From assembly GCF_058153355.1 (NCBI RefSeq), contig NZ_CM177019.1: a stretch of 64,000 bases of DNA, one strand, 5' to 3'. Below the pieces are notes generated by a model, which did no database searches, was not told where the DNA came from, and worked only from the letters and a program-made list of their open reading frames with translations. Positions 22,610 through 55,248 of the stretch are shown one piece after another; the stretch's first letter is position 1, and each line of letters begins with the position of its first letter. A program made the position numbers and the translations under genes.

Positions 22610-22659
22610 GTATGTCATTGCGGATGCGCTGCTTTAGGGTGGCGCATCTGGCATCGACG

Positions 22660-22805
22660 CATGCCTGCCGGATGCGGCATAAACGCCTTATCCGGCCTAC
22701 GATTCAGGCACAGGGTTGTAGGCCTGATAAGACGCGTAAGCGTCGCATCAGGCAATGGTGCTCGGATGCCGGATGCGGCGTGAACGCCTTATCCGGCATC
22801 CGAGA
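22660..22805. repeat. REP/BIME cluster (three REP units) in the copA-ybaP intergenic region
   Basis: Canonical REP palindromes (gcctgccggatgcggcataaacgccttatccggcctac and variants) in alternating orientation; the ORF-track 85-aa ORF at 22612-22869 is the typical REP translation artefact (RMRHKRLIRP). Confidence 0.8.
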
Positions 22806-22937
22806 TGAAGCGAATTTTTGGCCTTACGCGACCTTTTTGCACGTTATTCCCGGCGTGCCAAATATTTAATCCGTCCCAACTCCATTTGCGCCATCCCTCA
22901 CCGCGCGCTAGCATGATATTTCACAAAGGGAGGTCGT

Positions 22938-23732
22938 ATGGATCTGTTGTACCGGGTAAAAACGCTTTGGGCCGCGCTGCGCGGCAATCATTACACCTGG
23001 CCTGCTATCGATATCTCTCTTCCCGACCATCGCCATTTTCATCTGATCGGCAGTATTCATATGGGTAGCCACGATATGGCTCCCCTGCCCACCCGTTTGC
23101 TCAAAAAGCTCAAAAACGCCGATGCGCTGATCGTCGAGGCGGATGTTTCCACCAGCGATACGCCTTTTGCTAATTTGCCTGCCTGCGAGGCGCTGGAAGA
23201 GCGCATTAGCGAGGAGCAATTACAAAATCTGCAACACATAAGCCAGGAGATGGGTATTTCTCCATCGCTCTTTTCTACCCAACCACTATGGCAAATCGCG
23301 ATGGTTCTTCAGGCAACGCAAGCGCAAAAACTGGGGCTGCGGGCAGAATATGGTATCGATTACCAGCTATTGCAGGCGGCGAAGCAACAACATAAACCCG
23401 TGATTGAACTGGAAGGGGCAGAAAACCAGATTGCCATGTTGCTCCAGCTCCCTGACAAAGGACTGGCGCTGCTGGACGATACGCTGACCCACTGGCACAC
23501 CAATGCACGGTTGCTGCAACAAATGATGAGCTGGTGGCTGAATACGCCGCCGCAAAATAATGAAATAACGCTGCCCAATACGTTCAGTCAGTCGCTGTAC
23601 GATGTGCTGATGCATCAGCGAAATCTCGCCTGGCGGGATAAACTGCATGCTATGCCGCCGGGGCGCTATGTGGTCGCGGTCGGAGCTTTACATCTGTATG
23701 GAGAAGGGAATTTGCCGCAGATGTTGCGCTAA
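22938..23732 (+). CDS. ybaP: TraB-family protein YbaP
   Basis: 264-aa ORF matching YbaP by sequence recall and position. Confidence 0.9.
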   Translation: MDLLYRVKTLWAALRGNHYTWPAIDISLPDHRHFHLIGSIHMGSHDMAPLPTRLLKKLKNADALIVEADVSTSDTPFANLPACEALEERISEEQLQNLQHISQEMGISPSLFSTQPLWQIAMVLQATQAQKLGLRAEYGIDYQLLQAAKQQHKPVIELEGAENQIAMLLQLPDKGLALLDDTLTHWHTNARLLQQMMSWWLNTPPQNNEITLPNTFSQSLYDVLMHQRNLAWRDKLHAMPPGRYVVAVGALHLYGEGNLPQMLR

Positions 23733-23814
23733 AAAAATGGCCAATATCGCTATTGGCCCGTCAAAGAGGAATTTCATTTTTTTATTATTATGCCGTCACT
23801 TTAAGCGACGGTGT
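23733..23814 (-). ncRNA. chiX: ChiX (MicM/SroB) Hfq-dependent small RNA
   Basis: Minus-strand sequence ACACCGTCGCTTAAAGTGACGGCATAATAATAAAAAAATGAAATTCCTCTTTGACGGGCCAATAGCGATATTGGCCATTTTTTT matches my recollection of ChiX, including the terminator hairpin (GGCCAATAGCGATATTGGCC) and U-tract. Lies in the ybaP-ybaK intergenic region, antisense to both, as in K-12. Ends are approximate. Confidence 0.8.
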
Positions 23815-23935
23815 AACTCGATTGTCGCTCAATCTCACCATCCTGCCAATACTCTTAGGCAAGATGACTCTTTTTTTTGGACCGCCATCAGGCGTATGCT
23901 TGCTTCGTTTTTTTGTTTAAGGCAGGAAAATTACC

Positions 23936-24415
23936 ATGACACCCGCAGTTAAATTACTCGAAAAAAACAAGATTTCGTTTCAAATCCATACCTACGAGCA
24001 CGATCCGGCTGAAACCAATTTTGGCGATGAAGTCGTCAAAAAATTAGGTTTGAATCCGGATCAGGTCTACAAAACGCTGCTGGTGGCAGTGAACGGTGAT
24101 ATGAAGCACCTTGCCGTGGCCGTTACGCCGGTCGCAGGTCTACTGGATCTTAAAAAAGTAGCAAAAGCGCTGGGTGCCAAGAAAGTTGAGATGGCCGATC
24201 CGATGGTCGCGCAGCGTTCGACGGGATATCTGGTTGGGGGGATTAGCCCACTGGGGCAGAAAAAACGCCTGCCGACGATTATCGACGCCCCCGCGCAAGA
24301 GTTTGCCACTATTTTTGTTTCTGGCGGCAAGCGCGGGCTGGACATCGAACTGGCGGCAAGCGACCTGGCGAAGATCCTCGATGCCAAATTTGCTGATATC
24401 GCTCGTCGCGATTAA
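23936..24415 (+). CDS. ybaK: Cys-tRNA(Pro)/Cys-tRNA(Cys) deacylase YbaK
   Basis: 159-aa ORF, YbaK sequence recall. Confidence 0.95.
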
Positions 24416-24420
24416 GCATT

Positions 24421-24444
24421 GTGCCGGATGCGAACATCCGGCAC
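24421..24444. terminator. Hairpin between the convergent ybaK and ushA genes (likely bidirectional terminator)
   Basis: Inverted repeat gtgccggatg/catccggcac with 4-nt loop, immediately after the ybaK stop and before the ushA stop. Confidence 0.5.
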
Positions 24445-24451
24445 TTTCGGA

Positions 24452-26104
24452 TTACTGCCAGCTCACCTCACCTTTCGGTTCATAGACACTCACATCCAGC
24501 GGCGAGTTTTTCTGGATATACGCTTTCAGCACTTCAGCATCAATAAAGCCGGTATTCACATAGCCCGGTTTGTTATCCAGACGCGGATAGCCATCACCGC
24601 CAGTGGCATTGAAGTTTAATGTCGCCATACGGTAAGTTTTCGCCGGATCGACCGGTTCGCCTTTGATTTTCAGGTCGTTCAGTTTGCCGTCTTTCGCCAC
24701 AAAGCTAACGTTGGCAAATTGCGGATAGGCACCAGAATCAGGCTTCATTTGTGCGACGGCGGTCAGGTAATCAATCACCTCTTTACCGGTCATGTCGGCA
24801 TACACCACCACATTGCCGAATGGCTGCACTTTCAGCACATTTTTATAGCTGATATCACCTGCTTCGATAGAATCACGAATTCCGCCTCCGCTCATCACCG
24901 CAAAGTCGGCACCAGTGCGATCCATTTGTGCTGCCAGAATCAACCGCCCCATATTGGTCTGTACAAAACGCACTTTGCTGCGGTCGCCTTCCAGACGACC
25001 ATTGGTTTCGCCTATTTTCACTTCCAGCTGCGCTTTGCCTTTGTTCTGGAACGGCGATAACAGCGAAATAATTTGCTGGTTTTCGGCGATTTCAGGGGTG
25101 TAAAGCACACGCTCGCTTTTCCCGTCTTCCCAGGTCACTTTCTTCTTCAGGTTTACCGGAATCAACTGGTAGTTGACCATTTTCATTTCGCCGTTGCGAA
25201 ACTCAAAGTCGGCCCGACCAACGTACTTGCCCCACTCATGCGCCTGTACAATCCAGATGCCATTTTGTTGATCCGGTTTGCATGGCGTACCAGGAACGTA
25301 ATCGACCTGTTTTTTATTTTCTGCCGCCATACAGACTGGATCTTGCGAGTGACCTCCGACGATCATCGCCAGCGATCCGGCAGGCAGCGCGCGTGCCATC
25401 TCCACATCGCCCGGTGCATTAGAGCCGTGCTCACCGTTGTCGTAATGCCCCATATGGGTCGCCGCGATAATAATGTCTGGCTTTTCTGTCTGTTGCAGCT
25501 CCTGAATCACCAGCTTCGCTTCATCAGCGGGCTTACGAAATTCGATATCAGTGAAGTATTCCGGGTTACCAATTTTGGCTGTGTCATCGGTTGTCAGCCC
25601 AATAACGGCAATTTTCAGATCCTGACGCTTAAACAACGCCCATGGTTTAAACAGGCGCTCACCAGTGCTTTTTTGGTAGATATTGGCGGAAAGCAACGGG
25701 AACTTAGCCCACTTTTCCTGCTGGCGTAATACGGTGAGCGGGTTATCAAATTCATGATTACCGATTGCCATCGCATCATAGCCCACCAGATTCATACCGC
25801 GAAAATCAGGTTCGGCATCCTGTAAGTCGGACTCGGGCACGCCAGTATTAATGTCGCCACCGGAAAGTAGCAGCACGCTACCGCCTTCAGCTGCAACCTC
25901 TTTGCGGATACCATCCACCAGCGTTTTTTGCGCCGCCAGACCATATTCGCCATATTCATTGCGCCAAAAATGCCCATGATGATCATTGGTATGCAGAACT
26001 GTAATTTTGTAGGTTTTATCCTGCTCATAAGCCAGAGCAGTTTCACTCGCCAGTGTAAATGTGGTTAACAGTGCTAACGCCACGCCCCGCTGCAATAATT
26101 TCAT
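24452..26104 (-). CDS. ushA: UDP-sugar hydrolase / 5'-nucleotidase (periplasmic)
   Basis: 550-aa ORF with signal peptide and metallophosphatase motifs (HTNDHHGH, GNHEFD). Confidence 0.96.
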   Translation of the reverse strand: MKLLQRGVALALLTTFTLASETALAYEQDKTYKITVLHTNDHHGHFWRNEYGEYGLAAQKTLVDGIRKEVAAEGGSVLLLSGGDINTGVPESDLQDAEPDFRGMNLVGYDAMAIGNHEFDNPLTVLRQQEKWAKFPLLSANIYQKSTGERLFKPWALFKRQDLKIAVIGLTTDDTAKIGNPEYFTDIEFRKPADEAKLVIQELQQTEKPDIIIAATHMGHYDNGEHGSNAPGDVEMARALPAGSLAMIVGGHSQDPVCMAAENKKQVDYVPGTPCKPDQQNGIWIVQAHEWGKYVGRADFEFRNGEMKMVNYQLIPVNLKKKVTWEDGKSERVLYTPEIAENQQIISLLSPFQNKGKAQLEVKIGETNGRLEGDRSKVRFVQTNMGRLILAAQMDRTGADFAVMSGGGIRDSIEAGDISYKNVLKVQPFGNVVVYADMTGKEVIDYLTAVAQMKPDSGAYPQFANVSFVAKDGKLNDLKIKGEPVDPAKTYRMATLNFNATGGDGYPRLDNKPGYVNTGFIDAEVLKAYIQKNSPLDVSVYEPKGEVSWQ

Positions 26105-37671: not shown

Positions 37672-39603
37672 TCAAATGGGGCGGATACTTTCTTCATCCA
37701 GCTCCGCATCGAAGAATCGACGCAGGGTCTGAATATTATTATCCGCAATAATGGACTCGCGCGCCTGCGCAAGTTTTTCTTCGTATATCGCCTGACGCCA
37801 TTCCAGCGGCGTGCGCACCGCGGGATTATCATCTTCAACGATAGTCAGTTCAACCGTTGAACCTTTTAACGTGCTCAACGCTTCAGCCAGTTTTTGCTGT
37901 GCACCGCGGTTGTTTAAATGCCGCTGAGAGGAGCGCAAATGCAGACATACTGCGTTGTCGCTCTCCTCTTTCCAGGCATTTAACGCCACCTGTTCAACCA
38001 GTTTTGGTAGCGAAAGTTGGCTCACCTGTGCCGCCCAAGGATCGCGCTCAATGGCTTCTGCCGCCAGCTTTGCCGCCAGTTCCGGCGTTTTTTCATGTTC
38101 CAGCGCTTTTTTTAGCGCCTTCGGCGTGGCGACCACTTCTTTTTGCTGCATCACTGGAGTGGTAGCCTTCCAGCGATACGCTTCTTTTTTGGCTGGTGCT
38201 TTTTCCAGCGCCGATGGCACCGGACGCGCCTGAACGCGATCGGTGACCGAAGCCAGTCTTTCCAGCGCAGCGTTATTCACCGGCCGCGCGCGGGTAGCGG
38301 CTGCCGGTTCACTCTTTTTTGCTTTGGTTGCTCCCTGCACGCGCTGCAACTGCTGGCGCGCCGCCAGCACCTGGCTGGTGGTTTCCGGGAGCGGTACAGT
38401 CGGTGCCTGCTGCGGCGCTGATTGCGGTTGCGGCGGCACCTGGGTTGGCGTCATTACAGCCGTTGGCGCGACGGGCGCAAAGGACTGGCGTGGCACTTCT
38501 GGCTCAGGCAGCGGCATACGCGGATGGAACGCCAGCGCGCGAAGCAGCGTCATCTCAACACCCATACGGCGGTCTGGCGCATACGGTAATTCTTTGCGAC
38601 CAATCAACAGCGTCTGGTAGTAAAGCTGAATATCCGTCGGCGGTATGGTGCGCGCCAGTTCACGCATCCGCAGCTCGATAGCGGCCATGTCGTTGCCCAG
38701 CGCAGCAGGGGAAAGTTGCACCATTGCAATGCGGTGCAACAGGCCGAGCATTTCTACCAGCAACGCTTCCCACTCAATACCACGAGCGGCGGCTTCATTA
38801 ATCAGCGACATTACACGCTCGCCGTTGGCTTCAACCATCGCTTCAACCAGCGACAGCGCCTGATCGTCGTCAAGCGTACCCAGCATCGCACTGACCGCCT
38901 GGGTTGAAACCTGGCCGTCACCGCTGGCAATTGCCTGGTCGGTTAAACTTAGGGCATCTCGCAAGCTGCCTTCAGCGGCGCGCGCCAGCAGTTGCAGCGC
39001 CCGCGGCTCGTGAGCGATATGTTCTTCGTTGAGGATGTGCTCAAGCTGATGGCGAATTTGCTCGACATCCAGCGCCTTGAGATGAAATTGCAGGCAGCGT
39101 GACAAAATCGTCACCGGCAATTTCTGCGGATCGGTCGTCGCCAGCAGAAACTTGACGTGCTCCGGCGGTTCTTCAAGGGTTTTTAACAGTGCGTTAAAGC
39201 TGTGGCGCGACAGCATATGCACTTCGTCGATCAGATAAACTTTAAAACGACCACGCGCTGGCGCGTACTGGACGTTATCCAGCAGGTCGCGGGTATCTTC
39301 GACTTTGGTGCGCGAGGCGGCGTCGATTTCAATCAGATCGACAAAGCGCCCCTGCTCAATTTCACGACAGTTATCGCACACGCCGCACGGCGTCGCGGTA
39401 ATGCCGGTTTCGCAGTTTAGCCCCTTCGCCAGCAGTCGGGCGATAGAGGTTTTTCCGACGCCACGGGTGCCGGAAAAAAGATAAGCATGATGAATACGCC
39501 CTAACGACAAGCCGTTCGCCAGTGCGGTCAGCACATGTTCCTGGCCGACGACGTCAGCAAAGGTTTGTGGGCGCCATTTTCGGGCTAAGACCTGATAACT
39601 CAT
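37672..39603 (-). CDS. dnaX: DNA polymerase III subunits tau (full length) and gamma (frameshift product)
   Basis: 643-aa ORF with AAA+ motifs (GTRGVGKTS) and a C-terminal tau-specific region. Confidence 0.97.
   Translation of the reverse strand: MSYQVLARKWRPQTFADVVGQEHVLTALANGLSLGRIHHAYLFSGTRGVGKTSIARLLAKGLNCETGITATPCGVCDNCREIEQGRFVDLIEIDAASRTKVEDTRDLLDNVQYAPARGRFKVYLIDEVHMLSRHSFNALLKTLEEPPEHVKFLLATTDPQKLPVTILSRCLQFHLKALDVEQIRHQLEHILNEEHIAHEPRALQLLARAAEGSLRDALSLTDQAIASGDGQVSTQAVSAMLGTLDDDQALSLVEAMVEANGERVMSLINEAAARGIEWEALLVEMLGLLHRIAMVQLSPAALGNDMAAIELRMRELARTIPPTDIQLYYQTLLIGRKELPYAPDRRMGVEMTLLRALAFHPRMPLPEPEVPRQSFAPVAPTAVMTPTQVPPQPQSAPQQAPTVPLPETTSQVLAARQQLQRVQGATKAKKSEPAAATRARPVNNAALERLASVTDRVQARPVPSALEKAPAKKEAYRWKATTPVMQQKEVVATPKALKKALEHEKTPELAAKLAAEAIERDPWAAQVSQLSLPKLVEQVALNAWKEESDNAVCLHLRSSQRHLNNRGAQQKLAEALSTLKGSTVELTIVEDDNPAVRTPLEWRQAIYEEKLAQARESIIADNNIQTLRRFFDAELDEESIRPI
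38309..38320 (-). other. dnaX: dnaX programmed -1 frameshift site (A_AAA_AAG) with immediate -1-frame UGA, producing gamma
   Basis: Plus-strand ctttttt at 38314-38320 is the complement of AAAAAAG at codons AKK of ...GATKAKKSEPAA (0-frame verified by hand). The -1 frame reads AAA AAA GAG UGA, with the stop at plus 38309-38311. A GC-rich potential stem follows on the mRNA (plus 38281-38307). Confidence 0.85.
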
Positions 39604-55134: not shown

Positions 55135-55248
55135 GGGTGGGGGCCCTGCCAGCTACATCCCGGCACACGCGTCATCTGCCTTGGCTGCTTCCTTCCGGAC
55201 CTGACCTGGTAAACAGAGTAGCGTTGCGGGAGAACCAACAGAGCCCCC
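55135..55248 (-). ncRNA. ffs: 4.5S RNA (signal recognition particle RNA)
   Basis: Minus strand reads GGGGGCTCTGTTGGTTCTCCCGCAACGCTACTCTGTTTACCAGGTCAGGTCCGGAAGGAAGCAGCCAAGGCAGATGACGCGTGTGCCGGGATGTAGCTGGCAGGGCCCCCACCC, 114 nt, matching the E. coli 4.5S RNA as recalled. Confidence 0.95.

Follow-up and report, generated by a model that had tools for sequence, protein, structure and literature searches.

The window analysed here is a stretch of 64,000 nucleotides from contig NZ_CM177019.1 (NCBI RefSeq assembly GCF_058153355.1), and coordinates refer to it unless K-12 is named. Within it, the small RNA gene chiX lies on the minus strand between two protein-coding genes of the plus strand, ybaP and ybaK, and its 3′ end runs into the stop codon of ybaP.

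22938–23732, plus strand: ybaP (TraB/GumN family, 264 aa), convergent with chiX; from the ORF list and from RefSeq annotation, both of K-12 and of the identical stretch
23731–23814, minus strand: chiX gene (ChiX/SroB/MicM/RybC small RNA, 84 nt), with +1 at 23814 and the 3′ end at 23731; from the RF00368 match, identity with K-12 and the K-12 Term-seq end at the equivalent of 23731
23731–23732, no strand assigned: overlap of the ChiX 3′ end and the ybaP stop, 2 nt; from the ybaP TAA at 23730–23732 and the A-run at 23731–23737
23936–24415, plus strand: ybaK (Cys-tRNA(Pro)/Cys-tRNA(Cys) deacylase), divergent from chiX; from the ORF list and the RefSeq annotation

ChiX is among the best-studied small RNAs of enterobacteria, and chiX is already known as a gene, in this place and with this overlap of ybaP; the locus matters mainly for correct annotation. 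In strain R32_14_1F, 551 nt are matched at 100%, and the automated RefSeq (PGAP) annotation of this identical segment contains ybaP and ybaK only. It omits chiX, which comes to light only with a covariance-model search.

An earlier note on this DNA, made from the letters alone, had recognized a ChiX-like sequence on the minus strand and proposed a covariance-model search as a check. When the whole 64-kb window was scanned with the covariance-model set of Rfam 15 (cmscan), positions 23731–23814 on the minus strand gave a full-length match to RF00368 (sroB), covering model positions 1–83 of 83 and scoring 82.1 bits, well over the gathering score of 44, with an E-value of 1.8e-10. The name sroB is the one that Rfam uses for ChiX/MicM/RybC. 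The minus strand of this segment reads ACACCGUCGCUUAAAGUGACGGCAUAAUAAUAAAAAAAUGAAAUUCCUCUUUGACGGGCCAAUAGCGAUAUUGGCCAUUUUUUU and is identical at 84 of 84 nt to K-12 chiX (b4585, K-12 507204–507287), which confirms what the note had seen. The seed CUCUUUGACGGG, in which a mutation had been named as evidence against the identification, is unmutated and present as the complement of 23757–23768. There is a single copy of the 10-mer GTCAAAGAGG in the window, that of chiX itself, against a chance expectation of 0.08. It could be supposed that the resemblance is accidental, or that the segment is a decayed, non-functional remnant of chiX; an E-value of this size with the entire model covered, and a gene and promoter that are 100% identical to the experimentally characterized chiX of K-12, leave such readings a negligible probability. 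From its sequence, we hold it almost certain that 23731–23814 is the intact chromosomal chiX of an E. coli strain, encoding an 84-nt RNA with a sigma-70-type promoter and an intrinsic terminator. Two plus-strand open reading frames also cross this region, at 23647–23952 (101 aa) and 23753–23920 (55 aa); these are mechanical ORFs over a conserved RNA gene and are unsupported.

The RNA folds into two hairpins, with a minimum free energy (MFE) of −24.1 kcal/mol and a z-score of −3.9 against dinucleotide shuffles, and the parts of the gene can be assigned as follows.

23821–23849, minus strand: promoter-like site of chiX, with −35 TTGGCA at 23849–23844, a 17-nt spacer and −10 GACAAT at 23826–23821; from a consensus scan, with a presumptive function
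23793–23811, minus strand: 5′ stem-loop of ChiX, nt 4–22, 8 bp with loop UAA; from the MFE and centroid folds
23771–23792, minus strand: A-rich single-stranded linker, nt 23–44, CAUAAUAAUAAAAAAAUGAAAU; identical to K-12
23757–23770, minus strand: seed or target-pairing region, nt 45–58, UCCUCUUUGACGGG; from 12-nt complementarity to K-12 targets
23739–23758, minus strand: terminator stem-loop GGCCAAUA-GCGA-UAUUGGCC, nt 57–76, 8 bp; from a terminator scan and the fold
23731–23737, minus strand: U7 tail, nt 78–84, with roles in termination and in binding the proximal face of Hfq (PMC7987339); from the sequence and the K-12 Term-seq end on the final U

The TTGGCA-17-GACAAT element, on the minus strand, is the sole promoter-like site that the consensus scan returned in 23500–24100. 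The +1 at 23814 lies 6 nt past GACAAT, in agreement with the annotated 5′ end in K-12; the promoter region has no differences from that of K-12, and the GACAAT motif is seen again upstream of ChiX at many Enterobacteriaceae loci. The seed typical of the family, UCCUCUUUGAC(G/U)GG directly 5′ of the terminator, is present at nt 45–58 in a form identical to K-12, and the terminal two G of this region are the start of the terminator stem. The stem contains four GC pairs and is followed by an A and then by U7.

ChiX has been described as a class II small RNA, with its poly-U tail on Hfq’s proximal face and its AAN motifs on the distal face, and deletion of the AAN motifs weakens its competition for Hfq at the distal face (PMC7987339). 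The features of this class, multiple AAN motifs upstream of the seed together with a U-tail, are found in the present sequence, and the AAN motifs of the linker probably bind the distal face of Hfq in this strain too. MgrR and other class II small RNAs share this mode, with the U-tail proximal and AAN distal (PMC7987339), but in sequence, targets and regulation they are unrelated to ChiX; the likeness is one of function, not of family membership.

The expression, 3′ end, Hfq-binding mode and target regulation of ChiX are known from the K-12 literature, and we infer that they hold in the present strain; the identity, anatomy, seed complementarity and conservation of chiX are established here. 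ChiX pairs with the chiP leader, promoting Rho-dependent regulation of chiP; ChiX itself is sponged and driven towards decay by the chbBC intergenic sequence, and ChiZ, which derives from the chiP leader, acts as a further sponge (PMC7815308). In RIL-seq, the most abundant chimeras on Hfq include chiX:::chbC.chbB.IGT, chiX:::chiZ and chiX:::proQ (PMC10954441). Neither chiP nor chbBC falls within the 64-kb window, and pairing was checked with K-12 target sequences. Nucleotides 45–56 of ChiX are perfectly complementary to CGUCAAAGAGGA, a 12-nt segment covering the Shine–Dalgarno sequence of K-12 chiP, and nt 47–58 are perfectly complementary to the 12-nt segment CCCGUCAAAGAG in the K-12 chbB–chbC spacer. 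The chiP target segment is found in 5424 of 5426 complete E. coli genomes and the chbBC segment in 5404 of 5426, a near-universal presence from which we infer that this genome carries both targets. Whole-length duplex energies, which ignore intramolecular structure, were equalled by 8 of 500 shuffles for the chiP leader and 4 of 500 for chbBC. This is only modestly better than the shuffles, and the argument for pairing therefore leans on the two 12-mers and on published compensatory-mutation work.

The following scheme may be proposed for this strain. Transcription would start at 23814 on the minus strand, driven by TTGGCA-17-GACAAT, and would be stopped at 23731 by the 8-bp GC-capped stem and U7. 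The single-stranded seed, nt 45–58, would pair with the Shine–Dalgarno region of chiP mRNA, blocking translation and letting Rho terminate within chiPQ, with the chitoporin kept silent when chitosugars are lacking. On induction of the chb operon by chitobiose, the chbB–chbC spacer would act as a decoy, pairing with ChiX and favouring its decay, and ChiZ would likewise be expected to sponge ChiX.

The earlier note had placed the ChiX 3′ end at 23733, with the terminator abutting the ybaP stop codon. The closeness of the two is real, but they do not abut. The A-run at 23731–23737, the complement of the U-tract, takes in the last two bases of the stop, so that the U-tract overlaps the TAA by 2 nt, and the correct boundary is 23731, 2 nt further on. 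The context is that expected of chiX, between ybaK and ybaP and convergent with the latter, and the K-12 annotation has an equal 2-nt overlap (chiX 507204–507287, plus strand; ybaP 507286–508080, minus strand). The mapping of 3′ ends by RNA sequencing, which had also been suggested as a check, is already published for K-12, whose sequence is identical here, and places the dominant end of ChiX at 507287. This end (plus strand) was recorded by Term-seq of MG1655 in three conditions, with scores of 445279, 552306 and 955394, and was classed as ‘primary chiX, antisense ybaP’ (Adams et al. 2021, PMC7815308, Supplementary file 1). Its flank, ...GGCCATTTTTTT|AGCGCAACAT, is identical in the window; K-12 507287 is the last U of U7 and corresponds to 23731, within the ybaP stop codon. 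Given convergence without a spacer, the last two U of ChiX are the complement of the AA in the ybaP TAA. The overlap can thus be read from the K-12 annotation and from published 3′-end maps; our search of the literature for the chiX–ybaP overlap or a shared terminator returned tables and a RIL-seq relabelling note, and no dedicated description.

Within E. coli, 5422 of 5426 complete genomes have the ybaP–chiX–ybaK stretch, and in 5213 of these 5422 the identity of chiX with its promoter is 99% or higher. The chiX of K-12 has the same 84 nt, promoter region, neighbours, orientation and ybaP stop overlap as that of the window. The 205-nt spacer between ybaP and ybaK, which comprises chiX, its promoter and the ybaK leader, has no differences from K-12, whereas the flanking genes have diverged, ybaP by 39 differences in 795 nt (4.9%) and ybaK by 16 in 480 nt (3.3%). 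This contrast argues that chiX is far more strongly constrained than the protein-coding genes beside it. The two strains also differ upstream of ybaP, where ybaQ is missing; this gene, which lies between ybaP and copA in K-12, was not found anywhere in the window by blastn. No difference from K-12 is seen either in the remaining 71 nt of the spacer, at 23865–23935 upstream of ybaK. These contain, immediately ahead of the ybaK ribosome-binding site, a weak terminator-like element (23889–23902, plus strand), with a 5-bp stem and then CTTCGTTTTTTTGTTT, which could be an attenuator, the ybaP 3′ end or a product of chance. On a larger scale, the best complete E. coli genome is 97.4–97.6% identical over the 24 kb of 12000–36000, a segment that includes a giant BapA/SiiE-like adhesin region; with identity no higher than 97.6%, the E. 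coli lineage sampled here is not closely represented among complete RefSeq genomes.

Beyond E. coli, a scan of species-representative genomes with AAATTCCTCTTTGACNGGCC gave at least 120 loci, nearly all of them in Enterobacterales (one, L060, is a chance match); seed invariance among them is partly built in by the search pattern and cannot count as independent evidence. Full-length sroB matches of 63–89 bits were obtained at all 13 of 13 diverse loci, from Yersinia, Serratia, Proteus, Pantoea, Rahnella, Hafnia, Phytobacter, Klebsiella, Enterobacter, Citrobacter, E. albertii, Edaphovirga and Buttiauxella. The terminator stem carries compensatory changes from A-U to G-C in 7 of 27 homologues, and its six outer pairs are never broken. 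It was the sole structure recovered when the 27 homologues were aligned and folded with MAFFT and RNAalifold; the 5′ hairpin varies too much for alignment and was instead folded sequence by sequence. Across 93 distinct homologous segments the mean MFE of this hairpin is −10.4 kcal/mol, versus −4.7 kcal/mol for shuffles, and the stem sequences differ: the 5′ hairpin of ChiX is conserved as a structure, not as a sequence. The ChiX RNAs of other Enterobacterales (Salmonella-type MicM/ChiX, and those of Serratia, Yersinia, Rahnella, Pantoea and Proteus) share the seed AAAUUCCUCUUUGAC(G/U)GGCC, the terminator architecture and the A-rich linker with that of the window. They are mostly convergent with ybaP with a 2-nt overlap, and the sequence of their 5′ hairpin is lineage-specific.

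The overlap was surveyed at 115 loci that, among the matches listed, have a convergent ybaP homologue at a distance of up to 400 nt. The counts below are likewise among the matches listed.

2-nt overlap, stop TAA: 87 of 115 loci (Escherichia, Citrobacter, Enterobacter, Klebsiella, Kluyvera, Serratia, Yersinia, Rahnella and some Erwiniaceae)
1-nt overlap, stop TGA: 4 of 115 loci
17-nt overlap, ybaP stop in the terminator loop: 4 of 115 loci (Phytobacter-like; L041, L048, L066 and L094; YbaP ends ...QKNGQ*)
87-nt overlap: 1 of 115 loci (Phytobacter massiliensis, L026, 824–910; ybaP ORF antisense through all of chiX)
Gap of 3–230 nt: 19 of 115 loci

In P. massiliensis, a difference of 1 nt lets the ybaP ORF traverse the entire chiX gene. 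At two Proteus loci (L065 and L091), no ybaP lies at a distance of up to 400 nt. The 2-nt overlap at 87 of the 115 loci marks the arrangement in the window as the common and old state, not a peculiarity of this strain, and its distribution indicates that the overlap of stop codon and U-tract goes back to the ancestor shared by Enterobacteriaceae, Yersiniaceae and some Erwiniaceae. The breadth of this conservation is new, as is the finding of an identical spacer beside diverged ybaP and ybaK genes.

Why the two genes should meet in this manner can be considered in terms of termination and of regulation. The earlier note had held that the termination of ybaP and the 3′ end of ChiX share the same few nucleotides, which is correct for the translation stop codon of ybaP but not for a transcription terminator. 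Convergent genes without a spacer often share one terminator for both, and the stem at 23739–23758 is nearly palindromic and forms on either strand, as would suit a bidirectional intrinsic terminator serving ChiX and ybaP mRNA alike. Such a double role is nevertheless very unlikely. The ybaP-sense strand reads A7, the stem and then CGTCAAAGAG, with one T in ten and no U-tract; the terminator scan calls the minus strand only; and K-12 Term-seq has no ybaP-sense 3′ end in 507000–507499, although low expression of ybaP could hide one. Neither a U-tract on each strand nor mapped 3′ ends on both were found at the hairpin, which is not a canonical bidirectional terminator. Since only the ChiX strand has a U-tract and no ybaP-sense 3′ end is seen, what the genes share is the ybaP translation stop and not a transcription terminator, and ybaP transcripts probably continue antisense across chiX.

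Convergence without a spacer might itself be functional, with ybaP read-through RNA acting as a sponge for ChiX, with polymerases colliding, or with ChiX read-through lowering the expression of ybaP. We consider this unlikely. It is quite unlikely, too, that the conservation of the arrangement reflects a regulatory coupling in which the ybaP 3′ UTR, as a perfect anti-ChiX, titrates ChiX or causes collision while Rho-stopped ChiX read-through dampens ybaP. The plus strand does lack a terminator between the ybaP stop and chiX, and bicyclomycin Term-seq in K-12 has a Rho-dependent end at 507468 on the plus strand (window approximately 23550, minus strand), approximately 180 nt into ybaP and antisense to it (PMC7815308), so that some read-through of the ChiX terminator exists and runs antisense into ybaP. 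RIL-seq has also recovered Hfq-bound fragments in the ybaP sense, named ‘ybaP.EST3UTR’ (K-12 507215–507289, minus strand; window 23729–23803, plus strand), as chimeras with ArcZ and SdsR (PMC10954441), and if there were coupling these fragments would be real. Their signal, however, is approximately 0.2% of the ChiX counts, the odds ratio of the chimeras is 2.6 versus 164 for MicA–ompA, and the partners ArcZ and SdsR are the most abundant small RNAs. The best matches of ArcZ and SdsR to the ybaP-sense strand are A/U-tail pairings, with no specific complementarity found. The overlap of ChiX and ybaP confuses interactome labels, and the authors of the RIL-seq study relabelled ‘ybaP.EST3UTR’ as ChiX (PMC10954441). 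The fragments more probably reflect a strand artefact, arising from an RNA of great abundance, or non-specific proximity on Hfq than a real anti-ChiX transcript. The layout is kept in 87 of 115 species among the matches listed, which would accord with coupling; this conservation is explained equally well by two constrained features that leave no room for insertion, and gaps of 3–230 nt are tolerated in 19 lineages among the matches listed. In the reading that we favour, the ybaP–chiX boundary is compact and ancestral, held by selection on both features with no shared transcription terminator. The overlap of stop codon and U-tract illustrates how a gene boundary can become fixed between two features under constraint.

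A comparable geometry is found at arcZ and arcB in K-12, where arcZ (3350577–3350697, plus strand) overlaps arcB (3350689–3353025, minus strand) by 9 nt. Here also the terminator end of an Hfq-dependent small RNA lies over the 3′ end of a convergent protein gene, and the arrangement of chiX and ybaP is accordingly not unusual. ArcZ differs from ChiX in that it belongs to another RNA family, has a larger overlap, is processed and has no sequence relationship to ChiX.

On the other side of ybaK, ushA and ybaK are convergent too, with 24415–24452 running from the ybaK stop to the ushA stop. In K-12, Term-seq places the 3′ end of ushA mRNA at 506602, where it abuts the ybaK stop at 506603; tight convergent boundaries thus recur at this locus. 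The spacer between copA and ybaP (22610–22937, 328 nt) contains a cluster of REP elements, with matches to Rfam naRNA4 on both strands at 22721–22798. The cluster lies approximately 38 bp past the copA stop and 124 bp before the ybaP start, a position that matches the published TRIP1e repeat (PMC10888264). Elsewhere in the window, the Rfam scan returned the programmed frameshift element of dnaX at 38275–38339 (minus strand, 96.8 bits) and the 4.5S/SRP RNA gene ffs at 55144–55240 (minus strand, 68.1 bits).
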